Source of the DNA: Alphaproteobacteria bacterium
GTDB lineage: Bacteria > Pseudomonadota > Alphaproteobacteria > UBA7985
Assembly: GCA_965228345.1 (NCBI GenBank)
Contig: CBDDHH010000004.1
Coordinates: 663,133 to 727,132 of the forward strand
Length of the DNA: 64,000 bases
Direction: 5' to 3'
Position numbers and translations under genes: made by a program. The notes beneath the pieces are model-generated. The model was not told the DNA's origin and did no database searches. It worked only from the letters and a program-made list of their open reading frames with translations. Below, piece after piece: positions 3,970 to 64,000 of the stretch; positions within the stretch are counted from its first letter, which is position 1; each line of letters opens with the position of its first letter.

Positions 3970-3976
3970 GGGTCTA

Positions 3977-4168
3977 ATACCAACGGTCATAAAAAGTGAC
4001 CTTTTCATGTCCGTTTCGTGTCTCACGGCAGAAACGCTTCGCGTTTCGCCGCCCCTTCGCTGATACCCCGAGGCGCTTTCTTAGCTCATCTCGGGGCCGC
4101 TACGGGGGCCGCAGTCGCGGCCCTTATACCAGCGAATAAATGAGTCATTTTAAATCGCCGCTGGTATA
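3977..4168 (+). mobile_element. MITE copy R3
   Basis: TAATACCAACGGTCATAAAAAGTGACC left end, ...TAAATCGCCGCTGGTATAAG right end, same internal hairpins. Confidence 0.8.
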
Positions 4169-13911: not shown

Positions 13912-14086
13912 CTCTTTTATTCGCTGGTATAAGGGCCGCGACTGCGGCCCCCGTAGCGGCCCCGAGATCGGCGCGAAAGCGCCTCGGGGTATAAGCGAAG
14001 GCCCCGTCGGAGGCGAAACGCATCGCGTTTCTGCCGTGAGACACGAAACGGCCATGAGAAGGTCACTTTTTATGACCGTTGGTATA
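13889..14086 (-). mobile_element. MITE copy R4
   Basis: CTATACCAGCGGCGATTTAAAATGACTC...GACCGTTGGTATAAG. Overlaps the rsmD 3' end. Confidence 0.8.
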
Positions 14087-27661: not shown

Positions 27662-27887
27662 ATACCAACTCCGCTAAAAATTGACATTTTTAGCGGAGTT
27701 TTGTCTCACGGCAGAAACGCGTTGCGTTTCGGCTTTTGGGGTTGCGGTCTCACCTCGCTCGCTCAGCCCGACCGCGCCTTCGCTTATACCCCGAGGCGCT
27801 TTCTTAGCTCATCTCGGGGCCGCTACGGGGCCGCAGTCGCGGCCCTATACCAGTTCATAAAGAGTCTGTTTTAAGGAGAACTGGTAT
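27662..27887 (+). mobile_element. MITE copy R5 (variant with CTCGCTCGCTCAGCC segment and alternate terminal hairpin)
   Basis: CTTATACCAACTCCGCTAAAAATTGACATTTTTAGCGGAG...ATACCAGTTCATAAAGAGTCTGTTTTAAGGAGAACTGGTATTAG. Confidence 0.75.
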
Positions 27888-31000: not shown

Positions 31001-31160
31001 ATACCAGTTTTTATAAATGGTGACCCATTCATGAAGATTTTTGATGTCACGGCAGAAACGCTTCGCGTTTCGCCTCCCCTTCGCTTATGCCACGAGGCAC
31101 TTTCTTAGCTATTCTCGGGGCTGCTACGGGGGCCGCAGTCGCGGCCCTTATACCAGCGGC
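31001..31160 (+). mobile_element. MITE copy R6 (variant left end ATACCAGTTTTTATAAATGGTGACCC), merging into the IS630-family left terminus
   Basis: Shares the GGCAGAAACGCTTCGCGTTTCGCC and GGGGGCCGCAGTCGCGGCCC hairpins. Its right end is the TTATACCAGCGGCGG sequence that also begins the adjacent IS630 remnant. Confidence 0.65.
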
Positions 31161-31460: not shown

Positions 31461-31506
31461 TTTCCAATTCAGGATTCCCGGCGATTGGGGGATGTGCTAT
31501 GTATTT

Positions 31507-31746
31507 GAGACCAGCGGCGATTTAAAATGACTCTTTTATTCGCTGGTATAAGGGCCGCGACTGCGGCCCCCGTAGCGGGCTCCAAGCCCGAAGGGCGTAG
31601 GGAACGCCTGCGCCAAAAACAAGCGGCCCCGAGATGAGCTAAGAAAGCGCCTCGGGGTATAAGCGAAGGGGCGGCGAAACGCGAAGCGTTTCTGCCGTGA
31701 GACATAAAACGGCTGAAAAAGTGTCAACTTTTTTCGCCGTTGGTAT
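31507..31746 (-). mobile_element. MITE copy R7
   Basis: Near-identical to R2. ...GTGTCAACTTTTTTCGCCGTTGGTAT terminus. Truncates the IS630 remnant. Confidence 0.8.
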
Positions 31747-34608: not shown

Positions 34609-35526
34609 ATGAATAGATCATCTTTGCCGTGGCATCTGCTACAGAGTTTTTTGTCCTGCCTCGATCAGGGATCGCTGAGCGCGGCGGCGGCGCGCCTCAA
34701 GCTGAGCCAACCCACCCTTTCCCGGCACATTCGCGAGCTGGAAACCTTAATCCAGGGGCGTCTTTTCGTCCGGTCCCGCCAGGGTCTTCAGTTGACCACC
34801 CTGGGGCTAGAATTGGTTGAACCTGCGCGCGCCATGGCCGACGCTGCGGCCCAGATCAGCGCCCGACTGTCGGGAGCGGGGGCGGAGACAAGGGCGAGCG
34901 TACGCCTTACCGCCAGCCAGTACATGGCGACATTCTGGTTGCCCGAGATTCTCGTGGCCTTCCAGGCGCGTCACCCGCACATCCAGATCGAGCTGGTCGC
35001 CAACGATCAGACGCACAATCTGCTGCGGCGCGAGGCCGACATCGCGGTGCGCATGTTCCGGCCGACCCAAGATAGCCTGATCACACGGCACCTAGGCCAC
35101 ATCGATCTGTGCATGTTGACGACGCGCGCCTATTTGGCGACGCGCACGCCGCCGCAAACGCCCGAGGACTTGCGCGCCCATCGCCTGATTGGCGACGATC
35201 AACGCACCCTCATTATCGACGGCTTACGCGCCTATGGGTTGCGCTTTGGGCCCGAAGACTTTGCCTTACGTTGCGACGACCAAGTGACGGCGTTGCATTT
35301 GATCGCCGCAGGTGGGGGCATCGGTTTTGGCCAAGCGCGCCTTGCCGAGCGGTTTCCTAGCCTGATCGCCTTGCCCATCGGCGACGGCGCGCCGAAATTA
35401 CCGCTTTGGCTGACCGCCCACGAAGACTTGCGCAGCAATCGTGCCGTGCGGCTGCTCTATGACTTCTTGGCTGAGCAACTGGTTCAGGTGGTGATACCAG
35501 TTCTGCTTAACAAAGACTCCTTATGA
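34609..35526 (+). CDS. LysR family transcriptional regulator
   Basis: N-terminal HTH (LSCLDQGSLSAAAARLKLSQPTLSRHIRELE) plus LysR substrate-binding domain. Divergent from the oxidoreductase. Last ~10 codons are encoded by the MITE R8 terminus. Confidence 0.85.
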   Translation: MNRSSLPWHLLQSFLSCLDQGSLSAAAARLKLSQPTLSRHIRELETLIQGRLFVRSRQGLQLTTLGLELVEPARAMADAAAQISARLSGAGAETRASVRLTASQYMATFWLPEILVAFQARHPHIQIELVANDQTHNLLRREADIAVRMFRPTQDSLITRHLGHIDLCMLTTRAYLATRTPPQTPEDLRAHRLIGDDQRTLIIDGLRAYGLRFGPEDFALRCDDQVTALHLIAAGGGIGFGQARLAERFPSLIALPIGDGAPKLPLWLTAHEDLRSNRAVRLLYDFLAEQLVQVVIPVLLNKDSL

Positions 35527-35687
35527 ACTGGTGTAGGGCCGCGACTGCGGCCCCCGCAGCGGCCCCGAGACAAGCTAAGAAAGCGCCTCGGGGTATCAGC
35601 CAAGGCCCCGTCGGAGGCGAAACGCGAAGCGTTTCTGCCGTGAGACATAAAACGGCTGAAAATGTCAATTTTTAGCGGAGTTGGTAT
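35494..35687 (-). mobile_element. MITE copy R8
   Basis: ATACCAGTTCTGCTTAACAAAGACTCCTTATGAACTGGTGTAGGGCCGCGACTGCGG...GGAGTTGGTATTAG. Overlaps the LysR 3' end. Confidence 0.8.
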
Positions 35688-35689
35688 TA

Positions 35690-36302
35690 GGGTCCGTGGA
35701 CATTAGGGATTCCCATTTCTGCAAACTTGTGTTTCAAGCTTCCAAAACGGAGGTTTCAATGAACACAGATCGCTTTGTTGTCACAGATCAACTCTGGGAT
35801 AGGATTTCAGGGTTGATTCCAGGCCGCGATGGGGTTCGCGGTGTTACTGGAGAAGATAATCGTCTCTTCTTGGAGGCTGTGCTTTGGCGGGTGCGTGCAG
35901 GGCTCCCTTGGCGAGACTTGCCGCCAGAATTTGGCAAGTGGAATACTCAATTTCGCCGTTTCCGTCGATGGGCCGCAGCAGGTGTTTTTGAGAGACTTTT
36001 TGAAGCTCTAAACCAAGACCCCGACGTTGAATACGCTCTTATCGACGGCACTATGTTAAGCGTTCACCAGAAAGCCAGTGGCGCAAAAGGGGGGCTCAAA
36101 ATCAGTCCATTGGACGTTCAAGAGGTGGATTGACGACCAAGATCGTTGCCTTGGTTGAGGGCTTAGGGAACCTGGCCCGCTTCCTTCTGTTGCCTGGTCA
36201 AGCCCATGATATGCAAGGGGTCAAGCCACTCATAGAGGGCGTCTGTTTTGATGCTCTATTGGCTGACAAGGCTTTCGATGCAGACTGGCTTCTCGAAGAC
36301 TT
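35690..36302 (+). mobile_element. IS5-family (IS427-group) element, 3'-truncated: orfA (35759..36133) and N-terminal part of frameshifted orfB (36130..36300)
   Basis: orfA MNTDRFVVTDQLWDRISGLIPGRDGVRGVTGEDNRLFLEAVLWRVRAGLPWRDLPPEFGKWNTQFRRFRRWAAAGVFERLF (DUF4096-type). orfB fragment ...LARFLLLPGQAHDMQGVKPLIEG...ADKAFDADWL. The 5' ~200 bp is near-identical to the 54827.. copy. Truncated by MITE R9. Confidence 0.75.
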
Positions 36303-36493
36303 ATACCAACGGCGAAAAAAGCTGACACTTTTTCAGCCGTTTTATGTCTCACGGCAGAAACGCTTCGCGTTTCGCCGCCCCTTCGCTGATACCCCGAGGC
36401 GCTTTCTTAGCTCATCTCGGGGCCGCTACGGGGGCCGCAGTCGCGACCCTTATACCAGCGAATAAAAGAGTCATTTTAAATCGCCGCTGGTAT
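36303..36493 (+). mobile_element. MITE copy R9 (inserted into or abutting the IS427-like element)
   Basis: CTTATACCAACGGCGAAAAAAGCTGACAC...AAATCGCCGCTGGTATTATG. Confidence 0.8.
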
Positions 36494-44040: not shown

Positions 44041-44238
44041 ATACCAACGGTCATAAAAAGTGACCTTTTCATGACCGTTTCGTGTCTCACGGCAGAAACG
44101 CTTCGCGTTTCGCCTCCGACGGGGGCCTTCGCTTATACCCCGAGGCGCTTTCGCGCCATTCTCGGGGCCGCTACGTGGGCCGCAGTCGCGGCCCTCATAC
44201 CAGCGATCATAAGAGTCATTTATAATTGCCGCTGGTAT
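44041..44238 (+). mobile_element. MITE copy R10
   Basis: ATACCAACGGTCATAAAAAGTGACC...ATTGCCGCTGGTATTAG. Its terminal TTA forms the folD stop codon on the opposite strand. Confidence 0.8.
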
Positions 44239-45098: not shown

Positions 45099-45109
45099 AG
45101 GAGCTTCTT

Positions 45110-45348
45110 ATACCAACGGCGAAAAAAGTTGACACTTTTTCAGCCGTTTTATGTCTCACGGCAGAAACGCTCCGCGTTTCGCCTCCCCTTCGCTGATACC
45201 CCGAGGTGCTTTCTTAGCTCATCTCGGGGCCGCGTGTTTTTGGCGCGGGCGTTCCCTGCGCCCTTTGGGCTTGGAGCCCGCTACGGGGGCCGCAGTCGCG
45301 GCCCTTATACCAGCGAATAAAAGAGTTATTTTAAATCGCCGCTGTTAT
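45110..45348 (+). mobile_element. MITE copy R11
   Basis: CTTATACCAACGGCGAAAAAAGTTGACAC...TTAAATCGCCGCTGTTATTAG, with an extra internal GC-rich hairpin. Confidence 0.8.
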
Positions 45349-49175: not shown

Positions 49176-50687
49176 TTAACTATCGAGCGATAGAAGAGGC
49201 CGATAGGCGCTGGCCTCAAGCAAATGTGGGCGTTCAATAGCATCGGACCCCGCCAGGTCGGCGATGGTTCGGGCCACACGCAGCAAACGGTAGTAACCGC
49301 GCGCTGTGAGACGAAATCGCTCGGCCATGCGCGCGAGCAGATCCTGATTGTCTGACGAAAGGGGTAGTAAGGTGTCGAGCAGTTCCCCGGCAATTTCTGC
49401 GTTGGTTTCCAGGCCATGGTCTGCCAAACGATGGGTCTGGCGTTTGCGTGCGGCGATGACCCGAATACGCACCTGAGCACTGGGCTCGCCGTTGGCAGGC
49501 GCGCGCAACTCGCCGATCTTCACAGGTGGCATTTCGAGGATTAGGTCGATACGGTCCATGAAGGGTCCGGAGATTTTGGCTAGATAATCCTGAGAACACC
49601 GAATCCCGCGGCTGCACGGTTTGGACAAGGACTGAGTGTTGCCGCAACGACACAGGTTCATGGCCGCCACAAGTTGAAAACGCGCTGGATAGGTTGTTTG
49701 AGCCGCAGCTCGGGACACCGTGACCTCTCCGTTTTCAAGCGGTTGGCGCAAGGCTTCCAGCGCTTGCCGCGAAAACTCGGGCAACTCGTCTAGGAACAAC
49801 ACGCCGCGATGTGCCAAGCTAATCTCCCCTGGCCTAGCGCGGCTGCCACCGCCAACAAGGGCGGGCTGCGAGGCCGAATGGTGCGGATCGCGAAAAGGGC
49901 GGCGAGTCACGAGCCCACCATCGGGCAGCATGCCCGTGACCGAATGGATCATAGAAACTTCCAAGGCTTCGCGCGCATTCAGGTCGGGCATGAGGCCCAG
50001 CAGGCGCTTGGCCAGAAGGGACTTACCTGCCCCTGGAGGGCCGATAAGGGCGATGTTGTGGCCGCCGGCAGCAGCAATTTCGAGCGCGCGCTTGGCGGCC
50101 TCTTGTCCCTTTACATCACGCAGATCGGGGTAGGAGGACGCCACAACTTGGGGGGAAGGTCGCGCGGGACGCTGTAGGCTGGGATCCTTGAAATGGTTGA
50201 GCAGTTGCAGCAGCGTTTCGGGTGCTAAGATCGGCAAGGATCCCGCCCAAGTGGCTTCGGGCCCCTGGGCTGCGGGACAGATCAACCCCATGGCATGGCT
50301 ATTGGCGTGGATCGCAGCGGGAAGGGCTCCCGAAACCGGCATGAGACGTCCGTCGAGCCCGAGTTCGCCCAGAACAACTTGCTCCAACAGATCTTCGGCG
50401 GGTACCAACTCCATGGCAGCCAAGATCCCCAGCGCGATGGGTAGGTCAAAGTGGCTTCCTTCCTTGGCCAAGTCGGCGGGCGACAAGTTCACCGTGATTC
50501 GGTCAGCAGGTAGGGCTAAGCCCATTGCGGCGATGGCCGCGCGAACACGGTCTTTGGACTCTGCTACGGCCTTGTCGGGCAAACCCACTACTGAAAAGGC
50601 CGGCAGACCGGCCGTGATTTGCACTTGGACTTCGACCGAGCGGGTGGCAATGCCCTCAAAAGCGACCGAGTGCACCAAAGAAATCAT
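49176..50687 (-). CDS. comM: YifB/ComM family Mg-chelatase-like AAA+ ATPase
   Basis: Start at [13 protein letters not shown]... Walker [15 protein letters not shown]. Mg-chelatase ChlI-like region. The upstream extension of the table ORF runs into MITE R12. Confidence 0.8.
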
Positions 50688-50741
50688 GGACCACCTATAA
50701 CAGCGACCAAGAGGTGATGCCAGGTCAGAGCACCTTATGTC

Positions 50742-51023
50742 ATACCAGCGGCAAGTATGAGTGACTCTTAATGTTCGCTCATATAGGGGCCGCGACTGCG
50801 GCCCCCGCAGCGGCCCCGAGAATAGCAAGAAAACGCTCATATTCTGAGGCCTCAGCGTAAATCAAAGAATTGAAAATTGACCACAAAATGTAGCGCCTAT
50901 CTCGCTCAAATGACACTACATATTGCGGCTCATTGATCCGAAGTTGAATTATGCTGAGGTCTCATTCCATTAGACAAGACACGAAACGGACATAAAAAGG
51001 TTATTTTTTATGACCGTTGGTAT
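50742..51023 (-). mobile_element. MITE copy R12 (divergent ~150-bp internal segment)
   Basis: ATACCAGCGGCAAGTATGAGTGACTC...GGGGCCGCGACTGCGGCCCCCGCAGCGGCCCCGAG...TTATGACCGTTGGTAT. Central part differs from other copies. Confidence 0.65.
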
Positions 51024-51201
51024 CAAAGGCCATTTGCGGAGATACTATGCACCAATTTTAACACGTCGCGTTTCACCTCTGACGGGTCTCCCGACCTACG
51101 TCGCGGGCGCTTTCGCGCGGATCCACCAATATCCTAGCTGGGACACTTCACTGTTGGATGGGTGCCTCCCAGAACGATTGACGCTTCTGGTCTCTTGAGA
51201 C

Positions 51202-51591
51202 ATGGGATCTAGCATGACCGACCCTGCCAAAGTCCTGATCGTTGAGGATGAAAGCGGCATCGCCGAAGCCTTATCGTTTCTCATGCGCCGTGAAGGGTGC
51301 GAAACGTTTGTCGCGCGCGACGGCGATTTGGCGCTGACGGCCAGCCAAACCGCCAAGTTCGATTTGATTATTCTCGATCTCATGTTGCCGCGCGTGCCCG
51401 GACTCGATGTCCTACGTTTGATCCGTACCCAGGCGCTTAACCAAGATACGCCCGTGTTTGTGTTGACCGCGCGCGGGCAGGAACACGACCAGGAACGCGC
51501 CATGGCCGTGGGGGCGAGTGCCTTCATGGCCAAACCTTTCGTCAACGCCGATCTTGTCCGCACCGCCCTAGCGCTCATGGCGCGGGGCTGA
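51202..51591 (+). CDS. Single-domain response regulator (REC only, CheY-like)
   Basis: VLIVEDESGIAEALSF...FDLIILDLMLP...VFVLTARG...AFMAKPF are receiver-domain motifs with the phospho-Asp context ILDLML. No output domain. Confidence 0.8.
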   Translation: MGSSMTDPAKVLIVEDESGIAEALSFLMRREGCETFVARDGDLALTASQTAKFDLIILDLMLPRVPGLDVLRLIRTQALNQDTPVFVLTARGQEHDQERAMAVGASAFMAKPFVNADLVRTALALMARG

Positions 51592-51595
51592 CCCC

Positions 51596-51766
51596 ATGCG
51601 CGGCCGTCTGGTTGCGGTAGTCTTAACCCTGGGGGGCCTGGCATTGCTGTCTCCTTTGGGGTTCTATGCGATGCGTTCGAACCTTGCTTTGGCATGGATC
51701 TTCGGCCTGTGGACGGTACTGGTGGTCCTCGCCTTCTTCGCCAACCGCGGACAGCGCGGGCCGTGA
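51596..51766 (+). CDS. Small two-TM membrane protein (56 aa), possible SSS-associated small subunit (DUF4212-like)
   Basis: MRGRLVAVVLTLGGLALLSPLGFYAMRSNLALAWIFGLWTVLVVLAFFANRGQRGP. Below the ORF-table size cut-off. Its stop overlaps the GTG start of the downstream SSS-kinase (GTGA). Confidence 0.45.
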   Translation: MRGRLVAVVLTLGGLALLSPLGFYAMRSNLALAWIFGLWTVLVVLAFFANRGQRGP

Positions 51767-54447
51767 CACCAAGCCTAGCCTTAAGCATTGGCGCGGCTTA
51801 CATAGGACTACTGTTCCTCATCGCCTTCATCTCGGACCGTCGGGCGCGGCGGGCGGGGGTACGCGGTCAGGTCTCTGCCTGGGTCTTTACCCTGTCCATT
51901 TCGGTTTATTGCACCTCCTGGACCTTCTACGGGTCGGTCGGGTTGGCCAGCCGCTCGGGCTTGGAATTCACCGCGATTTACTTAGGCCCCACCCTGATCT
52001 TCCTGGGCTGGTGGTTCGTGTTGCGCAAAATCGTCCGCATCACCAAGGAACAACGCCTCACCTCCATCGCCGACTTTATTTCGTCGCGGTTCGGGCGATC
52101 GGCCTCAGTCGCGGCGACGGCAACGCTGATCGCTCTGATCGCTTCGACCCCCTATGTCGCTTTGCAGCTCAAGGCGGTGGCAACTTCGTTTGACCTCATC
52201 GCCGGCCGCCAAGCCGCAGGCGCGGCTTTCTGGCACGATACGGCTTTTTGGGTCGCCGCCGCCATGGCCTTATTTGCCGTTCTGTTTGGTGCGCGCAGCG
52301 GCACTGCGGACGAACACTACCCGGGGGTTATCAGCGCCATCGCCTTTGAGGCGGTGGTTAAGCTGATCGCCCTCATGGGGGTGGGCCTGTTTGTCGTTCT
52401 GCACCTACGCGGCCTAGACTGGCAGAACCTGATTAGCCCGGAGGATTTGCGCCGCATCACCACTTTGCCCGATCAGGCAGGCGGGCGCTGGGTTTCCTTG
52501 CTGGTCCTTTCCGCCATTGCAATCGTGTGCCTGCCGCGCCAGTTTCAGGTTACAGCGGTGGAGGCGGCGGACGAGGAACATTTCCGCACCGCCGCCTGGC
52601 TGTTTCCGCTCTATTTGCTGCTGATCTCGGCCTTCGTGATTCCCATCGCCATCGCCGGTCATGTCTTTGTCGGTGCCAACGCCAACCCAGATCAATTTGT
52701 TCTGACCGTCCCGCTTGCGCTCGGCAACGAATCCATGGCCATGCTCGCCTTCATCGGCGGGTTCTCCTCCGCCACTTCCATGGTCATTGTCGCCTCCATC
52801 GCCCTATCGATCATGATGTCGAACCACATTGTGGTGCCTTTGTTGTTTCGGCTCGCGGCGCAGGAAGGGCGCACCTACCTGGGCCGACGCTTGCTGGCGG
52901 TGCGCCAAGGCACGATCGTCTTCGTCTTGGGCATGGCCTTCCTCTACTACCGCACGGCAGCGCAGTCCGATGCCTTGGCAGCCATGGGCCTGATCGCCTT
53001 CGTCGGGGTCGCCCAGTTCTTTCCGCCGCTGCTCGCCGCCCTGTTCTGGCGTCAAGCAGCAGAGCGTGGCGCGCTCGCCGCACTCGTCATCGGCGGTAGC
53101 CTCTGGGCCTATACTTTGCTGCTGCCAACCCTCCTTCCCGACGCCCGTTGGATTGAGGACGGGCCCTTGGGTCTTGCCTTGCTTCGCCCCCAGGGCCTGC
53201 TCGGCGCGACGGGCCTTGATCCTGTGGTCCACTCGCTGCTTTGGTCGCTGCTCGGCAACACCTTGGCCTTGGGACTCGTGTCTGCCTACGCCCGCCGCAG
53301 CCCGCTAGAGCATTTACAGGAACGCCTGTTCGTTGATGCGTTTCAGCAGAGCGTGGGCGCCGAGAGCCGGGTCTGGCGCCGCTCAGCAGGCCTCGACGAA
53401 CTGCGGGTCTTGGCCCGCGAAGTGCTGGGGGAGGCCTCGGCCAACCGCCTGTTTGCAAAAATCCAAAATCCTTCCGCAGATGGCCAACAGGCAACCTCAG
53501 CCCTGATCTATGCAGTCGAACAAGAAATGGCGGCAACCTTCGGTGCCGCCACGGCTCGTCGCCTGGTGGCGCGCGTGGCACGGGGCGAAAGCTTGTCGAT
53601 GGACGACATGGCCGCGATCCTAGACCAGACTCAACATGCCCTCGACCAGGCCCGCGCACTGAAGGAAAAGTCCGACCAGCTGCAGGAAACCGCCCGATCT
53701 CTGCGCCAGGCCCTAGTGCAGCTTAGGCGCCTCGACCGCTTCAAAGACGACTTTCTGGCACAGGTCAGCCATGAGCTGCGCACGCCCATGACCTCCCTGA
53801 AGGCCTTCACCCAGATTTTGCAGGGCGAACAGGACCTGCCGCCCGCAACGCGGGAGAAGTACTTGAACATTATCGCCCAGGAGGCCGATCGTTTAACAGG
53901 CTTGCTTGACGAATTGTTAGACGTGCAGCACAGCACCGAAACAACCCGGCGGGACAAGGTCGCGCCCATCTCGCTCGACCAACCGCTGACCGCCGCGCTC
54001 AGTGTGTTTGTGGGCGACCAAGATGCGGGACGTTTGGACGTGACCCTGGCCCCCGCCCTAGCCGACATCCACGTGAAGGCGACCAGCGCACGCCTGCGTC
54101 AGGTCTTTATCAATCTGATTTCTAACGCCCTCAAATATGCGAGTGCCGAACAAAAGCCCCTTCGTGTCGATGTTCGCGCGGAACAACGCGATGATCACGC
54201 GATCATCTGGGTGAGCGATTCAGGGCCTGGCATCGATCCCACGTTCGCCGACTCGCTCTTCTTACGCTTTACTCGCGATGGCGCAGCCCAAGTCCCAGGC
54301 AGTGGTCTGGGGCTTGCGATCTGCCGGCAAATCATGCTGGCCATGAACGGGTCGATCAACCTGGCCGCCGACCAGGGCCCAAAGGGCTTTAGCGGCGCGT
54401 GTTTTGAGCTGCGCTTGCCCCTCGCCAAACCCGCAGCACCGACCTAG
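51763..54447 (+). CDS. Sensor histidine kinase with N-terminal sodium:solute symporter (SLC5/SSS) domain (CbrA-like)
   Basis: ~13-TM SSS domain (…FVLRKIVRITKEQRLTSIADFISSRFG…). HisKA H-box SHELRTPMTSLKAF. HATPase_c (…GSGLGLAICRQIM…). No receiver domain. 3' end abuts IS debris. Confidence 0.8.
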   Translation: MTPSLALSIGAAYIGLLFLIAFISDRRARRAGVRGQVSAWVFTLSISVYCTSWTFYGSVGLASRSGLEFTAIYLGPTLIFLGWWFVLRKIVRITKEQRLTSIADFISSRFGRSASVAATATLIALIASTPYVALQLKAVATSFDLIAGRQAAGAAFWHDTAFWVAAAMALFAVLFGARSGTADEHYPGVISAIAFEAVVKLIALMGVGLFVVLHLRGLDWQNLISPEDLRRITTLPDQAGGRWVSLLVLSAIAIVCLPRQFQVTAVEAADEEHFRTAAWLFPLYLLLISAFVIPIAIAGHVFVGANANPDQFVLTVPLALGNESMAMLAFIGGFSSATSMVIVASIALSIMMSNHIVVPLLFRLAAQEGRTYLGRRLLAVRQGTIVFVLGMAFLYYRTAAQSDALAAMGLIAFVGVAQFFPPLLAALFWRQAAERGALAALVIGGSLWAYTLLLPTLLPDARWIEDGPLGLALLRPQGLLGATGLDPVVHSLLWSLLGNTLALGLVSAYARRSPLEHLQERLFVDAFQQSVGAESRVWRRSAGLDELRVLAREVLGEASANRLFAKIQNPSADGQQATSALIYAVEQEMAATFGAATARRLVARVARGESLSMDDMAAILDQTQHALDQARALKEKSDQLQETARSLRQALVQLRRLDRFKDDFLAQVSHELRTPMTSLKAFTQILQGEQDLPPATREKYLNIIAQEADRLTGLLDELLDVQHSTETTRRDKVAPISLDQPLTAALSVFVGDQDAGRLDVTLAPALADIHVKATSARLRQVFINLISNALKYASAEQKPLRVDVRAEQRDDHAIIWVSDSGPGIDPTFADSLFLRFTRDGAAQVPGSGLGLAICRQIMLAMNGSINLAADQGPKGFSGACFELRLPLAKPAAPT

Positions 54448-54790
54448 ATAGTGTAGTCACGAGATGTTTGCCCACAGAGCGATACACCTGATATGGATAG
54501 CTGCCATGAATGAGGCGCGTTTTTGGCATATGGTGTTGCGATTCCCCTCCATCGTTTGAGGTGGAGGAGGGCATTTTCAACCAGATGCCTGATTTTGTAG
54601 AGGTCTTTGTCATGCTCGCGCTGATGCTTGCGGTTCTTTTTGGGCGGGATGACGGGCGTCATGCCCTGGCATTTAGCCTGGTCTAAGATGTCTTGGGTGT
54701 CGTATCCTCTATCGGCCAGCAGATAGTCAGCGCTTAATCCTTCGATAAGCTTCCCAGCTTAAGACCTCTGCATAACTGCGACTTCGATTT
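54444..54790 (-). pseudogene. IS5-family (IS427-group) transposase orfB C-terminal fragment
   Basis: ...LLADRGYDTQDILDQAKCQGMTPVIPPKKNRKHQREHDKDLYKIRHLVENALLHLKRWRGIATPYAKNAPHSWQLSI has the IPPK.NRK...Y..RN.VE....LK..R.IATRY.K pattern. No intact orfA. Confidence 0.7.
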
Positions 54791-54826
54791 CAGGATTCCC
54801 TGAGAGGGGAGTTTTTGTTATTTTCT

Positions 54827-55065
54827 GGCTAGGGTTCGTGGACATTAGGAATTCCCATTTCTGCAAAATTGTGTTTCAAGCTTCCAAAACGGAGGTTTCA
54901 ATGAACACAGATCGCTTTGTTGTCACAGATCAACTCTGGGATAGGATTTCAGGGTTGATTCCAGGCCGCGATGGGGTTCGCGGTGTTACTGGAAAAGATA
55001 ATCGTCTCTTCTTGGAGGCTGTGCTTTGGCGGGTGCGTGCAGGGCTCCCTTGGCGAGACTTGCTG
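54827..55065 (+). mobile_element. IS427-like element 5' fragment (left end + orfA N-terminus 54901..55065), truncated by IS3 insertion
   Basis: Near-identical to 35690..35930 (GGGTYCGTGGACATTAGG...MNTDRFVVTDQLWDRISGLIPGRDGVRGVTG.DNRLFLEAVLWRVRAGLPWRDL). Confidence 0.75.
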
Positions 55066-55105
55066 AACCGTCCCGGGTTTATCGGCGGGTGATTTGTTCA
55101 AATGT

Positions 55106-56302
55106 TAGGCAGGGCTATCGCTTTTGAGAATTTTTAGCCGCCCTGATCATATCGAGCATGAATTCGTCGTTCGATCCGGCGCGTTTTAGCTTGCCCCTCT
55201 TTGATCCCTTTGAGGGTTCGGTTTGGGCAAGGTTTAGTGCCATTCGCCGAAGTGTGGCAAAATTTTCAGGGCCGTTGCCTGTCCTATTTCGTGCGGCATC
55301 TTCGTTCATTGTCACATCCAGCACCCAATGCAAGCTGTTTTCAATCGCCCAATGAGCGCGTGTTATCTCAATTGTGCGCTTGGCTGACACAGGCGTACTC
55401 AAGAGGAAGTAGCGTTCGTGATGACTGATTTTGTCTCCAATCTCACGGCGTGCGCTAACCTTTGCAATTGCCTGAAGTCCAGGCCAGTCATGGCGTTCCA
55501 TGAGCCATTCAACATCATGGCTGATCAAAGCAGTACGAGTTTCGATACGCCCATGACCTGCGCTAATCTCTTCTGCAGTATCACACACCTGAGTATTCGC
55601 ACGATCATCTAAGTACAGCTTCACGTCCTCGTATAAGCTGCCCTGATTGCGTTTGAGGGCGAGCGCGTAATCGCCACCAGCGTCTGTCACAGATTGTGCG
55701 GTATTGCGTTGGGTATGCATGGCGTCTGCTGTAACGATACGCCCCTTGAGCGAGAGCATCTCCAGCAGAGCAGGCAAAGCCGTGATCTCGTTGGACTTTT
55801 CGTCAACGGCGACCTGACCAAGAACCAACTTTTCCTTGACTGAAAAGGCCTGCACCAGGTGCAGGGCGGAGCGAGCTTTGGCGCGATCAAACGAGCGGCG
55901 AAGCGTCTTTCCATCAACGGCAATCACGTCACCAAGTTGATCAGAAAAATCCTCAACAAAACCAAACAGTGCTTTGTGAAGGGACTTTGGATCAAGCGCG
56001 TTAAACAAGTCAGAGAACGCGTCGTGACTTGGAATACCGTGCTTTAGCGACATAAATGTCCGTAAAAACGGCTCCTTCGTCTTTGCAAACAGGGACATAT
56101 CACAGCACCCCTCACCGCCGCTAAGCGTGCATAGAAGCCCGATCATCAGCATCTCGTGCAGATCGTGACGGGTCGCGTTGCTCCTGCGTGGGTCATCAAC
56201 TCCTTCGAATATATGGGAAAACTCTTCCATGGCGCGTCTCCTACATGGGGTTACGCGCTCCTCATGAATCGATTGGCACCTCCTTCATAGATATTTTTTC
56301 AA
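55106..56302 (-). mobile_element. ISAs1-family IS nested inside the IS3 element (transposase CDS 55115..56230)
   Basis: 371-aa H-repeat-associated/ISAs1-type DDE transposase (…VDGKTLRRSFD…ITRAHWAIENSLHWVLDVTMNEDAARNRTGNGPENFATLRRMALNL). IRs AGGGCTATCGCTTTTGAGAA / AGGGGAATCGCTTTTGAAAA. Flanking ~11-bp direct repeat AAATGTTAGGC. Confidence 0.75.
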
Positions 56303-56321
56303 AAGCGATTCCCCTGAAATG

Positions 56322-57233
56322 TTAGGCGGCTAGATCATAGCCATGTTTTTCTTTTAAGTATGTCTCCTCTTTTTGGCTAGGGGTTAGGTATCCGATGGAT
56401 GAGTGGATGCGTTTGGTGTTGTACCACTTGATCCACCTGGCGGTTTGCCACTCGACATCTGCTCTGGATTTCCAGGGGCCGATGCGCTCAACGACCTCTG
56501 TTTTGTACAGGCCGATGGTGCTTTCTGCGAGCGCGTTGTCGTAGCTGTCGCCCACGCTGCCCACCGACATATCAACGCCTGCCTCTTCTAGGCGTTCGCT
56601 GTATTTGAAGGACATGTATTGGCTGCCGCGATCACTATGGTGAATGGGCTTGATGCCATCTACCGATATGGGTCTGCGTTGATGCAGGGCCTGCTCCAGG
56701 GCGTCCAGCACGAAGGCCGTTGTCATAGAGGTGCTGACCTTCCACCCCACCATGCGCCGTGCAAACACGTCGATGACGAAGGCCACATAGACATCTCCCT
56801 ACCAGGTTTTGACGTAAGTGAAATCACAGACCCATAACTGGTTAGGGTAAGAGGCATGGAACGCCCTGTTCACCCGATCCTCTGGGCAGGGCAGTGCCTT
56901 ATCAGGATTGGTGGTGATGACGGGCTTTCCCCGCACCAGGCCTTGATAACCAGCCCTTTGCATCAATCGCTCTACCGTGCACTTGGCGATGGCATAGCCT
57001 TCAGACTTGAGCTGATGCCAAACCTTGCGGGTGCCATAAATGCCATCGCTCTCATCCTGATAGACGCGCTTGATCTCAGCAAGATCAGCCTCATCCTGAT
57101 TTGCCTTACGACTGCGCAGATCAGGGTTGCGCGCCATAGAAGCATGACGGCGATAGGTTGAGGGCGCGATGGACAAAACCTTCGCCATCGGCTCGGCACC
57201 GAACTCTTGGATATGATCGCTCATAAAGCTCAC
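56322..57233 (-). pseudogene. IS3-family transposase orfB with in-frame TAG replacing a conserved Trp codon
   Basis: Reading ...CDFTYVKTW*GDVYVAFVIDVFARRMVGW. IS3 consensus has W at this position (TGG->TAG). Otherwise an intact rve domain. Confidence 0.7.
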
Positions 57234-57565
57234 GACTTGGGAAACGGGCGGCCGAGCTCCGCCTGTGCGAAATAAGCCGAGGCCTTCTTCAAGATCTCAT
57301 TGGCTTGGCGAAGGTGGCGGACCTCACGCTCCAGTTCTTTGATCCGCGCCTTATCTTCCGTGTTCAAACCAGGGCGCTCACCTGCATCCTTCTGGGCCTG
57401 ATGACACCAGGAGCGAAGGCTATCGGGAGAACAGCCTAAGCTGCTGCCAACGGCGATACAGGCCGCTTTATCACTGGCATAGGAACCACGCTGCTCGGAA
57501 AGCATCCGCACAGCACGCTCACGAAACTCCGCATTATAACGGGGGGTGTATCTTTTGTTCGACAT
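57230..57565 (-). CDS. IS3-family transposase orfA
   Basis: MSNKRYTPRYNAEFRERAVRMLSEQ...KARIKELEREVRHLRQANEILKKASAYFAQAEL is a typical IS3 orfA (HTH + leucine zipper). Confidence 0.8.
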   Translation of the reverse strand: MSNKRYTPRYNAEFRERAVRMLSEQRGSYASDKAACIAVGSSLGCSPDSLRSWCHQAQKDAGERPGLNTEDKARIKELEREVRHLRQANEILKKASAYFAQAELGRPFPKS

Positions 57566-57613
57566 GGGTCTTCCTTAGAGAATTGGACCCGCCGATAAAC
57601 CCGGGACGGTTCA

Positions 57614-58468
57614 TTGTTCAGATGCCTGTTGATCGGTCAATGGCATGGTCTAAGCGATCCGAAGCTGGAGCGAGCGCTCAAGGTCCGCCTGGACTTCATG
57701 ATGTTTTGCGGACTTGATTTGAACGCGTCTGTGCCCGATGAGACGACCCCTTGTCGTTTTCGCAACGCGCTGGTGAAGGGCAAGGTTTATGATGACTTGT
57801 TAGCCGAAGTCTGCCGCCAACTCGAAGGCCATGGTCTCAAACTCAAGCATGCAGAGGCTGCGATCATTGACGCCACACTGGTGGAAAGCGCTGCGCGTCC
57901 ACGCAGCTATATCGATGCTCCAAAGGACCGCGAGGAGGGCGAAGAAGCCGAGGCACAGGACGCTATGACCTATAGTGCCGATCCTGATGCGCGTTGGGTC
58001 AAGAAGGGGGCCAAAAGCACCTTGGGCTTCAAAGGATTTGCACGTTGTGATGAGGAGGGCTTTGTTGACCGTGTCCATACTACGCACGCCAATCGCGCAG
58101 AAAGCCCTGAATTTGAGACCATGGCACGCAATGCTAAAGCCGCACGCGTCTTGGCCGATAAGGCCTATGCCGCCAAAGCTAACCGTGCCTTTTTGAAGGG
58201 CAAACACCGCGATGGTATCATGCGAAAAGCTGTAAGAGGACGCCCGCTAAGGGCCTCAGAAAAGCGCTTCAACAAGCTGATCTCAAAGCGCCGCTTTCGC
58301 GTCGAACAGTGCTTTGGCACGATGAAGCGTCTGTTTAGCTTTGCTAGAGCACGATACTTCGGAACGGCCAAAACCCATGCCCAGTTCGTTATGGCCGCCA
58401 TCGCACAAAACCTCTTGAAGGCTGCCAACAAAATCGTCCTCAACCGCCAAATCTTGCAAATCACATAG
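57614..58468 (+). pseudogene. IS5-family (IS5-group, DDE_Tnp_1) transposase, N-terminally truncated
   Basis: ...LLIGQWHGLSDPKLE...RFRNALV...AAIIDATLVESAARPR...DARWVKKGAKSTLGFKGFARCDEEGFVDRVHTTHAN...ADKAYAAKANRAFL...RFRVEQCFGTMKRLFSFARARYFG matches IS5-group transposases. ~70 N-terminal residues missing, displaced by the IS3 insertion/rearrangement. Confidence 0.7.
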
Positions 58469-58693
58469 ACCAAGTCATTCAATCTTAGCGGAACGAACGG
58501 AATCTGGTCCATGAGGAGGCTTCCAATTCTCTGATCTGCAATTCTCGCCTCCAATTCAGCTCTCCAAACAGATCAATCTATGTAAGATTTGGCATCAAGA
58601 CCACAAATGCGCCTCCAATGAAGGGCTTGGGTAATCAGATATGCCTCTGGTTCGCACAAAAAATTGCTCTATCCCCTCATGCAGAGGTCTTTT

Positions 58694-58924
58694 ATACCAA
58701 CTCCGATAAAAATTGACACTTTATCGGAGTCTTGTCTCACGGCAGAAACGCCTCGCGTTTCGCCTCCCCTTCGCTTATACCCCGAGGCGCTTTCTTAGCT
58801 TGTCTCGGGGCCGCTGCGGGGACCGCAGTCGCGACCCTTATACCAACGATCAAAAGAGTGATTTTCAATCGCCGCTGGTATTGTACCAGCGAATATAGGA
58901 GTCACTTTTAATTGCCCCTGGTAT
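58694..58924 (+). mobile_element. MITE copy R13 (terminal hairpin duplicated in tandem)
   Basis: ATACCAACTCCGATAAAAATTGACACTTTATCGGAG...CGCCGCTGGTATTGTACCAGCGAATATAGGAGTCACTTTTAATTGCCCCTGGTAT. Confidence 0.8.
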
Positions 58925-59015
58925 CAGACAAGTGTTGCTCCAGGCCACCCTTGGTATTGAGCTCACAAAACGTCCGACCCAAACATGGACACCGCCGCGA
59001 ACCGCCATGCGTCTT

Positions 59016-59546
59016 TCACGCGCGTTTTGGCTTGACCTTGTTTCCCATCTGCAAGTTTCCGCAGATAACGCCGCCGCGCTCAAGCAGCAATTCGGCGGTA
59101 CTGATGTTCCCTGTAACACGGCCACTTGCGTGGATGATCAGCAGTCCACTAACGGCTAGATCGCCCTCATAGGTGCCAACGATCTCAGCGCTATCGACAG
59201 TTGCGGAGCCAGAAAAACTGCCATCTTTAAGTACCTCAAGGCTTTTGGCCGAATGCAGTTTCACATTTACAACTCCCTCGACAACCAAGCTCTCGCATGA
59301 TTTCAACTCGCCCGTTAGGCAAATGTCTCGACCGACATTGAGGCGCCCGCCGTCGCTTAGTTTAGGCGTCGGGGACTTCGGTTCGGGCTTCTGCGTGGTC
59401 TTGGCCGGCTCTGAAACACGTGGGCCCAAATTGTCCGCAGCCCGTCGCAGAGGCTGATGGACGGGCGCACGCGCCGCCTCGCGCACTTTCGCAGTAGCGG
59501 GGGGGGGCGGGGCACTAGGGCCGCGACGACTGGCTGAACTAAACAT
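59016..59546 (-). CDS. Bactofilin family protein with Pro-rich N-terminal region
   Basis: Beta-helical repeat region ...ICLTGELKSCESLVVEGVVNVKLHSAKSLEVLKDGSFSGSATVDSAEIVGTYEGDLAVSGLLIIHASGRVTGNISTAELLLERGGVICGNLQ typical of bactofilin (DUF583). Confidence 0.7.
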   Translation of the reverse strand: MFSSASRRGPSAPPPPATAKVREAARAPVHQPLRRAADNLGPRVSEPAKTTQKPEPKSPTPKLSDGGRLNVGRDICLTGELKSCESLVVEGVVNVKLHSAKSLEVLKDGSFSGSATVDSAEIVGTYEGDLAVSGLLIIHASGRVTGNISTAELLLERGGVICGNLQMGNKVKPKRA

Positions 59547-59747
59547 GCAATACCTCTAAGTCCGTCAACAGAACAGCGGAGCCAAGCCAATGGGAGTCCT
59601 CACGAAGAATGTCCGTAAATAAGGAAACTCCCAGCCAGATCGTTGTCCTTTGCTTTTGCCTAGTTTGAGTTCTCGGAGGAGTCTAAGTCTATTGCAAGAG
59701 ACCTCCTGCCAATTTTGATTTCAGTGGCTATTTGGCAACCCCGAGAG

Positions 59748-61186
59748 CAGTGTCCCGTGGAGTGGTGTAAGAGCGGGGAGGTTATCGGCGCCAGCTAGCT
59801 GACGGTGATGACCTCCTCGCTCCTGTCTAATCTGGCAGTGGCGGAGCTTTTGTTTAGGGTGTTTTTTGTAACCTACACCGCAAAGGAACTCCGACATGAC
59901 ACACGATCACATCGACACCCCCGCCACCGACCCTCGCTTAGAGCTTCTGGACCTTATTGAAAACCACGCATCGCACGATCTTCTAAGCGACATGCTGACC
60001 TTCGCTGCCTCGCAGCTCATGGAGATGGAGGTCAGTGCCAAGACGGGTGCCTATCTTGGCGAACGCCGCAGCAATGAACGCACCACCCACCGCAACGGCT
60101 ATCGATATCGCCCCTGGCAGACGCGGGCTGGCAGCCTGAACCTTGCCATCCCCAAGCTGCGCAAAGGAACCTACTTCCCCTCGTTCTTGGAGCCCCGCCG
60201 CCTTACCGAAAAAGCCCTGACCGCCGTCATTCAAGAGGCTTATATCAAGGGCGTCTCCACACGCGCCGTCGATAATCTCGTCCAGGCCTTGGGCGGCACA
60301 GGCATCTCCAAGAGCCAGGTATCGCGCCTATGCGAGGAGATTGATGAGCGGGTTCAGGCCTTCCTTAACCGACCCATTGAAGGCACCTGGCCCTACCTCT
60401 GGCTGGACGCGACCTACATCAAGGCGCGAGAGGGCGGACGCATCGTCTCCAAAGCCGCTATAGTCGCCATGGGCGTTAATGATCGCGGTGAACGCGCTAT
60501 CCTGGGCCTGGGCATTGGCCAGAGTGAGGCGGAGACCTTCTGGAAAGACTTCCTGCGCTCACTAGCTGATCGAGGCTTGCGCGGCGTCCAGCTCGTCATC
60601 GCCGATGACCATCGCGGCCTCACTGCGGCGGCGGATAAGGTGCTAAACGCTCCTCGCCAACGCTGCCGCGTCCATTGGATGCGCAACATGGGCGCTTATG
60701 TTGGCGTTAAGCATCGCCCCGTCGTCACGGCCATGATCAAAACCATCTTTGCGCAAGATGAGTTATCAGACGCTGAAGCTCAATGGAGCGTTGTTCAGGA
60801 TTCCTTTGCCAAGCAGTGGCCCAAGCTCGCCGCAGCAATGGAGGCTTCCCGCCATGAGGTGCTGGCCTATATGGCCTTCCCCAAGACACACTGGACCAAG
60901 CTGCACTCCACCAACCCCCTCGAACGCCTCAACAAGGAGATCAAGCGGCGGACCAAAACCGTGGAGATCTTCCCCAACGAGGCCGCCATCATACGCCTCG
61001 TCGGCGCGCTCTTAGCCGAGCAAAACGACGAATGGTGCGTGGCCAGAAACACCTATATCAAATGGCCCGAAAACGGCACCAACATCGAAAGAGAAAATAA
61101 GCCCGTGACAAACACACTCATCAGCGGTTAAACTAAACTAACCCGACCAAGGGCCGAACCGCTTACACCACTCGGCGGGACACTAT
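59748..61186 (+). mobile_element. IS256-family IS element (transposase CDS 59896..61131, ~24-bp imperfect IRs)
   Basis: 411-aa mutator-type transposase (…YLWLDATYIKAREGGRIVSKAAIVAMGVNDRGERAILGL…). IRs AGTGTCCCG(TG)GAGTGGTGTAAG / CTTACACCACTC(GG)CGGGACACT. ~1.44 kb. Confidence 0.85.
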
Positions 61187-62078: not shown

Positions 62079-63026
62079 TTGGATACTTTCTTTGGCATGC
62101 GCTTGTTCGCACAGACCGTTCAGTCTGGCTCGTTTTCTGAGGCAGGTCGTACCTTGGGAATGGCACCCAGCTCGGTTTCCCGCCAAATTTCTATGCTGGA
62201 GGATCGTCTAGGCGTCCGTTTGCTCAATCGGTCGACCCGCCAGTTGCACCTAACCGAGGCGGGTCAAATCTACTACGAGCGGACAACCAACATCTTGCAT
62301 GCGGTTGAGGACGCTAACTTGGCGGTCGCGGAACTGGAGTCGAAACCGCGCGGTCACTTGCGATTGAACATCCCCGTAACCTTTGGCCGTCGCCATATTG
62401 TGCCAGCCCTGTCGGGGTTCATGACGCTCTATCCTGAGGTTGAAATGGACGTCACTATGACCGATGCGATGATTAATGTCATTGAAGATGGGGCTGACTT
62501 GGTGGTGCGGATCGGCGAACTGAAAGACAGTTCGCTGATCGCCAAGAAACTTGCGCCCAACAATCGGGTTGTGTGCTGCTCACCAGACTATTTAGAGAAA
62601 CACAAGAAGCCACAGTCACCCAGGGATCTCACAGACCATCGCTGTCTCACCTATAGGCGCGCTGTCAATCCCGACATGTGGCACTTCGCCGATGCGGCGG
62701 GAAATGTCGAGCATGTTAAGATCAATGCAGCCTTTCACGTCAACAATGGTGAAGCCCTCTTGCCCCTTGCCCGCGATAGCCAGGGGCTGATCTTGCTCCC
62801 AACTTACGTGGTTGGCAACGATTTGCGGCGCGGCACCCTTGTGCCTGTTCTCACCGACTATCAGGCCAGCCCCATTAGCATCGACACAGGCATCTATGCG
62901 CTCTACCCGTCCAACCGTCACATGTCCCCCAAGGTGCGAGCTTTTGTTGACTATGTTTGCGGCCATTTTGGCACCCCGCCCTATTGGGATAACCTAAGTC
63001 CCGCAACAGACGCTGCTGAGGTCTAA
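62079..63026 (+). CDS. LysR family transcriptional regulator
   Basis: N-terminal HTH MRLFAQTVQSGSFSEAGRTLGMAPSSVSRQISMLEDRLGVRLLNRSTRQLHLTEAG plus LysR substrate-binding domain. Lower-GC DNA. Confidence 0.85.
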   Translation: MDTFFGMRLFAQTVQSGSFSEAGRTLGMAPSSVSRQISMLEDRLGVRLLNRSTRQLHLTEAGQIYYERTTNILHAVEDANLAVAELESKPRGHLRLNIPVTFGRRHIVPALSGFMTLYPEVEMDVTMTDAMINVIEDGADLVVRIGELKDSSLIAKKLAPNNRVVCCSPDYLEKHKKPQSPRDLTDHRCLTYRRAVNPDMWHFADAAGNVEHVKINAAFHVNNGEALLPLARDSQGLILLPTYVVGNDLRRGTLVPVLTDYQASPISIDTGIYALYPSNRHMSPKVRAFVDYVCGHFGTPPYWDNLSPATDAAEV

Positions 63027-63653: not shown

Positions 63654-63801
63654 TACCAGTTCTCTTTAAATAAGACTCCTTATGAACTGGTATAGGGCCG
63701 CGACTGCGACCCCCGTAGCGGCCCCGAGATCGGCGCGAAAGCGCCTCGGGGTATAAGCGAAGGCCCCGTCGGAGGCGAAACGCGATGCGTTTCTGCCGTG
63801 A
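63654..63801 (-). mobile_element. MITE copy R15 (3'-truncated)
   Basis: ATACCAGTTCTCTTTAAATAAGACTCCTTATGAACTGGTATAGGGCCGCGACTGCGACCCCCGTAGCGGCCCCGAG...GGCGAAACGCGATGCGTTTCTGCCGTGAG. Lacks the distal TIR. Confidence 0.7.
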
Positions 63802-64000
63802 GTATCCATGATAAATCAAGGGGCAATTTGTGACCATTTTCTGTTTTCCCGCAAGAGGGCATTTGCCAGCGTGATCAGCTTAGGCATCACGGCGATGAGG
63901 GCGACTTTTTTCGGCTTTCCGGCTTCGACAAGGCGGCTCTAAGAAATCCTTTAGGTCTTCATTGTATCGCATGGCGACCAAGGAAGGCATGTAGAGAGCA

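Follow-up and report, generated by a model that had tools for sequence, protein, structure and literature searches.

The subject of this analysis is a group of three plus-strand genes in a 64,000-nucleotide stretch of DNA, hereafter called the window, from Alphaproteobacteria bacterium (assembly GCA_965228345.1, contig CBDDHH010000004.1, positions 663,133 to 727,132). The genes encode, in order, a response regulator consisting of a receiver (REC) domain, a 56-residue protein with two predicted transmembrane (TM) helices, and a sensor histidine kinase whose membrane domain is of the SLC5, or sodium:solute symporter (SSS), type. We consider it probable that this trio is an intact, native operon that works by the mechanism proposed here and belongs to a variant form of SLC5 transceptor two-component system which is widespread but uncharacterised. 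A preliminary description, made without database searches, had reported the same three genes, and both Pfam and the translations confirm that all of them are present where it had placed them. For the window itself the practical result is corrective, in that the operon is intact and the insertion sequence (IS) debris that follows it is incidental.

The kinase gene (51763-54447, plus strand) encodes 894 residues, beginning with GTG and ending with a TAG codon at 54445-54447. The list of open reading frames (ORFs) also offers an upstream ATG at 51694; the GTG at 51763 is nevertheless the true start, because the corresponding ORF of the closest relative cannot extend any further upstream and because the N-termini of the family align there. 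Pfam recognised SSF (residues 36-444, 8e-7), HisKA (residues 661-722, 8.9e-16) and HATPase_c (residues 775-888, 1.1e-21) in the product, and its scan of the kinase returned no REC domain. A database search returned more than 7,900 homologues with lengths of about 900 residues, none of which is listed with a receiver domain. To examine the architecture further, we used an AlphaFold2 (AF2) model built on 30 family members, with a mean predicted local distance difference test (pLDDT) score of 75. Residues 1-510 (51763-53292) form a 13-helix transporter-like membrane domain, defined from the AF2 helices, a Foldseek search with the model, which matched the SLC5 fold to NIS and SGLT, and a comparison with solved structures, in which the best match was 10ed_A, the cryo-electron microscopy (cryo-EM) structure of the CbrA SLC5-STAC region (E 1.2e-67, residues 7-457). 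This is followed by two predicted helical hairpins (residues 540-606, 53380-53580), made of four short AF2 helices (544-606) with a central loop of about 13 residues and situated at the position of STAC in CbrA and CrbS; the STAC domain is itself a four-helix bundle, in which a central loop connects two alpha-hairpins (PMC5715377).

A coiled-coil helix (AF2 residues 613-688) then leads into the DHp domain, identified by the HisKA match, the two together covering residues 613-729 (53599-53949). A PAS domain between the linker and DHp was not matched by Pfam, and the AF2 helix 613-688 is unbroken. The phospho-accepting histidine is H670 (codon 53770-53772), and an alignment of 30 family members shows no variation at H670, E671, R673, T674 and P675. 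The catalytic ATP-binding (CA) domain occupies residues 734-888 (53962-54426; HATPase_c) with its N, G1 and G2 boxes intact, N784, N788, D819, G821, G823, G846, G848 and G850 being invariant in the family. Every family-invariant catalytic residue is present in the window kinase. Foldseek and a sequence search of the PDB both matched the catalytic part to HK853, and NCBIfam places the DHp/CA core nearest the PhoR/PnpS type. These results bear out the earlier view of the kinase as CbrA/CrbS-like and lacking a receiver, with a single-domain REC protein as the only regulator at the locus.

That regulator (51202-51591, plus strand) is 129 residues long and consists of a Response_reg domain (Pfam E 2.9e-25, residues 11-120) with no other domain. 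As read from the translation, it keeps the acidic pocket E15/D16, the phospho-acceptor D59 (codon 51376-51378), T89 and K111, the residue set of a single-domain CheY-like protein, and NCBIfam places its receiver nearest the PhoB/OmpR type. The closest relative of the locus, L001, lies on the chromosome of a metagenome-assembled genome (3,254,998 bp) labelled Alphaproteobacteria, and is 87% identical to the window in nucleotides and 93% identical in kinase amino acids, the two lineages thus differing at about 13% of nucleotides; the regulators are 95% identical. Homology between the two extends over 51177-54438. All three ORFs are intact in both. Between the two lineages, the regulator has a ratio of nonsynonymous to synonymous substitution rates (dN/dS) of 0.067 and the kinase one of 0.070, and the values for the small ORF and the neighbouring ComM gene are 0.31 and 0.037, respectively. 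Purifying selection acts on the trio, with a dN/dS of about 0.07 for the regulator and kinase. The suggestion that the pathway had been crippled is at odds with these data, given that the genes are intact, selected and in possession of their catalytic residues.

To place the trio in context, we surveyed 86 related loci with kinases 38-93% identical to that of the window, 74 of which have enough upstream DNA for comparison, with flanks of about 6 kb. A receiver gene lies immediately upstream in 50 of the 74, in each case REC-only and typically encoding 122-150 residues, and a small two-TM ORF is found between the receiver and kinase genes in 62 of the 74. Long upstream ORFs (184-480 aa) that might have indicated fusion of REC to a further domain in relatives proved to be over-extended starts, with REC as the only domain. 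In distant relatives the gene is found either just after the kinase gene or about 2.9 kb before it, and it is still REC-only. Neither a second receiver nor a DNA-binding response regulator was found beside the kinase or in the flanks of the 50 loci with an upstream regulator, and in none of the 86 is the kinase gene directly flanked by one for a DNA-binding response regulator; five loci hold a longer receiver-containing ORF (219-273 aa) elsewhere in their flanks. The arrangement recurs in dozens of independent loci, far above chance. By these comparisons, a stand-alone receiver is the predicted conserved phosphorylation partner across the kinase family.

Single-domain receivers are established as phosphate sinks in other systems, and it is conceivable that the REC-only protein is such a sink or modulator, the real target of the kinase being an unlinked DNA-binding regulator of the OmpR/PhoB type. 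The affinities of the receiver to the PhoB/OmpR family and of the DHp/CA core to PhoR/PnpS kinases would fit with this, as would the fact that the locus holds no effector gene. However, throughout the family the REC-only gene is invariably inherited together with the kinase gene and closely spaced with it, and none of the 86 kinases has a DNA-binding response regulator directly beside it. From these loci and the 64 kb of this genome that were inspected, we regard a sink as unlikely, and favour the stand-alone receiver as the output of the kinase.

The second gene of the trio (51596-51766, plus strand) begins 4 nt past the regulator stop and ends with a TGA (51764-51766) that overlaps the kinase GTG (51763-51765), so that the GTGA overlap described previously can be read directly at 51763-51766. 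Its 56-residue product has hydrophobic stretches predicted at approximately residues 4-26 and 30-49, flanked by basic termini (MRGR at the N-terminus and NRGQRGP at the C-terminus), consistent with a two-TM hairpin. The ORFs at the same position in the 62 relatives (52-114 aa) align into one family with a common pattern: a basic N-terminus, a TM1 closing on a conserved proline, a brief connecting loop in which G-[IV]-P is frequent, and a TM2 with Y-x-F-x-x-W-x-x-L-I. All members share W39 and nearly all share P20 and F36, the mean column identity being 21%. A profile search returned at least 1,721 homologues, with E values down to 1e-18, from Alpha-, Beta- and Gammaproteobacteria and Desulfobacterales, every one annotated as hypothetical and none with a Pfam domain. 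The spacing of the genes is also a feature of the family. A candidate kinase start lies between -8 and +15 nt from the small-ORF stop in 66 of 72 loci, 27 of which have 1- or 4-nt overlaps, and the commonest arrangement of the regulator and small ORF is a 4-nt overlap with the small-ORF start. Conservation of the small ORF, which the preliminary description had raised as a check on its proposal, is thus evident, and the sequence comparisons indicate a real, conserved two-TM protein family.

The small protein had been likened to the small subunits of SSS transporters, and this comparison stands in part. Its closest precedent is CbrX, a 58-aa two-helix peptide of Pseudomonas whose gene overlaps cbrA and drives cbrA translation, the act of translation rather than the peptide sequence being what matters for cbrA expression (PMC6591292). 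In a 2026 cryo-EM structure, CbrX packs on TM3 and TM8 of the CbrA SLC5 domain with both termini cytoplasmic, and it is dispensable for growth on histidine (PMC13488458). In position, size and predicted topology, the window protein resembles CbrX. The specific families suggested for it, DUF4212, DUF3311 and DUF485, are not supported: neither Pfam nor NCBIfam matched the window ORF, and among the 62 relatives there were two weak DUF3311 matches (E 0.05) and none to DUF485 or DUF4212. DUF6611, the most frequent weak match among the relatives, was likewise rejected, since its scores of 18-21 bits in three members fell below the cut-off of 27. Homology to CbrX was sought by comparing the single sequence and three profiles (A3, A4 and A6) with all PDB sequences, and nothing significant was found. 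The best score for CbrX, 10ed_X at E 2.7, came from the 62-sequence profile, and the other three queries did not return 10ed_X.

Given the CbrX precedent, the 56-aa ORF might have no function as a protein, being either a translated leader that serves the kinase start or a chance ORF in G+C-rich DNA. The independence of cbrA expression from the cbrX peptide sequence and the dispensability of CbrX on histidine are both compatible with this, and there is no strong Shine-Dalgarno sequence ahead of the kinase GTG at 51763; the dN/dS of the small ORF is laxer than that of its neighbours, and the family identity is low. On the other hand, the hairpin, the basic termini and P20, F36 and W39 are conserved even between loci whose kinases share just 38-50% identity, and the profile detects at least 1,721 homologues. 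Retention of a membrane hairpin is not expected of a pure leader, and the cryo-EM map shows CbrX in physical contact with CbrA. A leader or chance ORF is accordingly quite unlikely on our assessment, and we retain the reading of the small gene as one encoding a membrane protein.

The survey also revealed recurrent companions of the trio. Immediately upstream of the trio and in the same orientation, 31 of 41 comparable loci carry a gene for an ScfR-family regulator, and several more have one nearby. The encoded proteins combine an XRE-type helix-turn-helix (HTH_3), a Peptidase_M78-like domain and the ScfRs C-terminal domain, and are nearest RamB in NCBIfam. Genes for an ATP-binding cassette (ABC) transporter of the Peripla_BP_6 type occur in 28 loci, in most cases transcribed divergently from the ScfR gene. 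Members of the ScfR family recognise CoA thioesters and govern the assimilation of acetate and propionate; a Paracoccus homologue, Pden_1785, was noted in passing as clustering with a two-component system, and was not studied there (PMC10370305). A study of this Pden_1785 cluster was not found in the literature. In a distant clade (38-42% kinase identity), the REC-only gene overlaps the start of a gene for a protein of about 700 residues with a C-terminal RNase_T (DnaQ-like) exonuclease domain (L037 2969-5469; L053 8796-11305; L054 922-3480; L069 2317-4905; L080 1673-3709 and 7268-9439; L061 1021-3099). The N-terminal region of these proteins gave no Pfam matches, with PAS detected in one of the five examined. 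Two of these loci (L061 and L080) also have an adjacent acetyl-CoA synthetase gene. The RNase_T protein may be an alternative effector of the stand-alone receiver, and the gene neighbourhoods as a whole suggest that the receiver works through protein partners that differ between clades. We infer that the companion genes point to short-chain carboxylate or acyl-CoA metabolism.

As a side observation on the ScfR proteins, that of locus L003 (3895-5397) and its closest homologues (P0242-P0252) gave no Pfam HTH_3 match. A divergent XRE-like helix-turn-helix is still readable in the N-terminus of the L003 type (…VAKGLGVSAGLLSMVLNGQRKPS…), and more distant ScfR partners have a normal HTH_3.

The window locus differs from most of its relatives in that a DNA-binding companion is indeed missing, although the missing gene is one that normally lies upstream of the trio. 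Neither an ScfR nor a Peripla_BP_6 homologue is present in the 64 kb, and tblastn with the ScfR proteins of L003 and L004 (E<=10) found no ScfR remnant in the window or in L001. When the L003 protein was compared with 5.8 billion proteins in a word-filtered search, 103 matches were obtained, including orthologues at 52-81% identity from other assemblies; none came from the L001 chromosome, the genome on which this indirect test bears. A relative with a 71%-identical kinase, L003, retains both the ScfR gene and the ABC transporter. The missing ScfR gene cannot be attributed to the IS elements downstream, because its absence is common to L001, where there is no IS, and for the same reason the loss of the ScfR and ABC genes is old, predating the IS insertion and unrelated to it.

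With its usual companions gone, the trio might be an orphaned remnant without output that is heading for decay. The frequency of adjacent ScfR genes elsewhere and their absence from the window and L001, the lack of an L001-chromosome orthologue among the 103 matches, and the richness of the region in IS elements and copies of a miniature inverted-repeat transposable element (MITE)-like repeat could all be taken in this sense. In contrast, all catalytic and phospho-acceptor residues are kept, and the three ORFs have remained intact in two lineages that are about 13% apart, with a dN/dS of 0.07 for the regulator and kinase that is near that of the housekeeping neighbour. Moreover, trios without an adjacent ScfR gene also occur in L007, L039, L045 and L072. 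An orphan in decay is thus improbable, and we continue to treat the window trio as a functional operon.

We then considered the 3' end of the kinase gene, where the preliminary description had placed an IS fragment within 3 bp of the stop codon. IS5-family debris is indeed found there, in the form of a remnant of an element, putatively of the DUF4096/IS427 type, with the C-terminal end of a transposase (54439-54790, minus strand), but it reaches further than described. Homology to L001 ends at 54438, and at the junction 54438/54439 the inserted DNA supplies the last two codons of the kinase together with its TAG. A minus-strand ORF at 54444-54662 matches positions 195-245 of the 258 in NCBIfam transpos_IS5_3 (E 1.3e-11); the kinase and transposase stop codons have the palindrome CTAG in common, and the remnant is 66-76% identical to DNA annotated as IS5 family transposase in several plasmid records. 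No second copy that would define its ends was found within the window. We consider the element to be a remnant because only positions 195-245 of the model are present, no second copy exists in the window, and the kinase homology ends 6 nt from the transposase stop. The L001 kinase is 10 residues longer, and this extension follows the end of the catalytic domain at residue 888. The IS has replaced only the non-conserved C-terminal tail of the kinase and left the catalytic domain untouched.

From 54439 onward, synteny with L001 is gone, and the genes downstream of the kinase in L001 are not in the window. In L001, which is IS-free at this point, the same trio is followed by a convergent gene for a 1,146-aa indolepyruvate-ferredoxin-oxidoreductase-like protein, 3 nt past the kinase stop. 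It had been proposed that a cognate DNA-binding regulator once followed the kinase and was deleted by IS insertion or recombination, leaving the pathway crippled or rewired; a comparison of synteny with relatives was suggested as the check, the same arrangement without an output regulator counting against the idea. Despite the IS debris that abuts and slightly invades the kinase 3' end exactly where L001 synteny breaks, and the roughly 6.7 kb of IS elements in place of the L001 downstream genes, such a deletion is extremely improbable, since the IS-free relative has an oxidoreductase gene and no regulator at this position, none of the 50 loci with an upstream regulator has a DNA-binding partner in its flanks, and a REC-only partner is conserved family-wide in a trio under purifying selection. 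Relatives thus have the same trio with no downstream regulator, the outcome that had been named in advance as counting against a deletion.

Based on the domain anatomy and conservation of the intact operon, as well as current knowledge of CbrX and CbrA, we propose the following mechanism. The small protein would be made in fixed proportion to the kinase through translational coupling and, by analogy with CbrX on CbrA, would serve as an accessory subunit packed on the SLC5 domain. When the SLC5 domain binds or transports a small solute, the signal would travel along the linker and coiled coil and cause H670 to be autophosphorylated, the phosphate then passing to D59 of the REC-only protein. Judged from the companion genes of relatives, the solute is most likely a short-chain carboxylate or a related compound. 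The phosphorylated receiver would act through protein-protein contact rather than DNA binding, and in most close relatives its likely target would be the co-oriented upstream ScfR/RamB-like regulator of the acyl-CoA type, presumably controlling the divergent ABC transporter. Since the ScfR and ABC genes are gone from this locus, and apparently from the L001 genome, the receiver of the window would have as its target either a partner encoded elsewhere or the complex of kinase and transporter itself.

Several points weigh against this proposal. While the domain anatomy and its conservation can be read directly, every interaction step is inferred. Sequence and fold searches with kinase residues 540-606 gave no match that would identify them as STAC. 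The case for the small protein as an accessory subunit consists of its position, size and topology, and, as CbrX is dispensable for CbrA function on histidine, its role may be minor or purely translational. The link from the receiver to ScfR is drawn from gene neighbourhood, and no REC-ScfR fusion was present among the 103 ScfR homologues. The apparent absence of ScfR from the genome derives from a word-filtered search that covered the L001 genome and not that of the window, and the ligand has been deduced from neighbours that are absent at this very locus.

Comparison with known systems indicates how far the parallels extend. Like the window kinase, CbrA is non-hybrid, having no REC, and the two SLC5 domains are clearly homologous by the match to 10ed_A; both kinase genes are directly preceded by, and overlap at their start with, an ORF of about 56-58 aa that encodes two TM helices. 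Unlike CbrA, the window kinase has no PAS between the linker and DHp, and whereas CbrB is an NtrC-type regulator encoded downstream, the window partner is a stand-alone receiver encoded upstream. The window small ORF has no detectable sequence similarity to CbrX, which has been reported only in Pseudomonas and Azotobacter (PMC6591292), whereas the window family is found mainly in Alphaproteobacteria. CrbS/CrbR (MxtR/ErdR), RpuS/RpuR and PrlS/PrlR share the N-terminal SLC5 sensor fused to a histidine kinase. A monocarboxylate is associated with two of these systems, acetate with CrbS/R and pyruvate with RpuS/R (PMC9100948, PMC5715377), and, in keeping with CrbS and RpuS, relatives of the window kinase adjoin acetyl-CoA synthetase or RamB-like regulators. 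In contrast, CrbS, RpuS and PrlS have a PAS domain, a C-terminal receiver and a LuxR-family DNA-binding partner, and the window kinase has none of the three.

The SSS small subunits, namely DUF3311 proteins with MctP/PanF-like transporters, DUF485/YjcH with ActP, and DUF4212, resemble the window ORF in being small two-TM proteins encoded immediately upstream of an SSS-family domain, but the window ORF has no Pfam match to any of them. With regard to the ScfR family (RamB, PccR, MccR/PrpR), relatives of the operon are preceded by an ScfR-family gene, and the Paracoccus Pden_1785 cluster, compared here by its published mention, likewise has an ScfR gene beside a two-component system; unlike these clusters, the window locus has neither an ScfR gene nor the divergent ABC transporter. 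Taken together, the sequence features set the kinase family apart as a variant of its own among SLC5 transceptor two-component systems, and a paper describing the kinase/small-ORF family was not found in the searchable literature. The family extends the CbrX-CbrA arrangement to PAS-less kinases with a stand-alone receiver partner. It is very large, mostly from Alphaproteobacteria and metagenomes, and the value of these observations lies in the family more than in the window copy.

Considering the loci jointly, we tentatively raise a broader reading, to which we give a low probability: that a CbrX-like peptide is a general subunit of SLC5 kinases beyond Pseudomonas, that the stand-alone receiver is the sole phospho-partner, and that it acts on interchangeable effectors by protein contact. 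With equally modest confidence, these effectors might be an ScfR/RamB-type acyl-CoA-sensing factor in the near clade and the PAS-exonuclease protein in the distant clade. If true, a carboxylate signal from outside the cell would be joined to an acyl-CoA signal from inside it, and the window copy, selected without ScfR, would show that the trio has a self-contained function such as phosphorylation-controlled transport. The companions (ScfR/RamB-like regulator, ABC transporter, acetyl-CoA synthetase and PAS-exonuclease) provide testable leads on the sensed signal and the route of output, and ScfR-less copies under selection are natural experiments in which what the trio does at its core can be told apart from the output it usually has.

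The IS remnant at the kinase 3' end is the first part of a pile-up of approximately 6.7 kb (54439-61131), in which Pfam and NCBIfam identified two IS5-family fragments followed by further transposases. The second fragment (54830-55063, plus strand) is the left end of another IS5-family element, with Pfam DUF4096 and the NCBIfam IS5 N-terminus, cut off by an ISAs1 element (55115-56230, minus strand). It is 98% identical to window positions 35688-35921, about 19 kb upstream, and on account of this identity the element appears to have been recently active in the genome. Beyond ISAs1 are an IS3 element (56322-57565), an IS5 element (57614-58468) and an IS256/Mutator-type element (59896-61131), and a bactofilin-like ORF (59016-59546) lies inside the pile-up. 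Past the cluster is a gene for a LysR-family regulator (62079-63026), which nothing ties to the kinase operon.

On the other side of the operon, the upstream neighbour in both the window and L001 is a divergently oriented ComM/YifB-like gene of the Mg-chelatase family. The intergenic region at 50841-51201 is presumed to contain the plus-strand promoter, with homology to L001 starting only at 51177. A sigma-70 scan of 50700-54900 returned a single site, on the opposite strand within this region, which is the chance level, and nothing above chance on the plus strand; an Rfam search of 50000-55500 at E<=0.1 found no RNA leader. Between the ComM/YifB-like gene and the regulator lies a partial copy of the MITE-like repeat (50736-50836, minus strand), recognised by blastn against L001 repeats and other window copies, which is outside the operon and marks its upstream boundary only. 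The repeat family is about 200 bp long, with terminal inverted repeats ATACCAAC...GCTGGTAT defined by alignment and G+C-rich internal hairpins, and has at least 14 copies in the 64 kb (1088-1285, 1538-1779, 3973-4168, 13887-14043, 27768-27853, 31038-31158, 31506-31746, 35491-35690, 36300-36493, 44083-44238, 45101-45348, the copy at 50736-50836, 58694-58881 and 63679-63813). Two tandem MITE-like copies are also present in L001, at 3317-3670.

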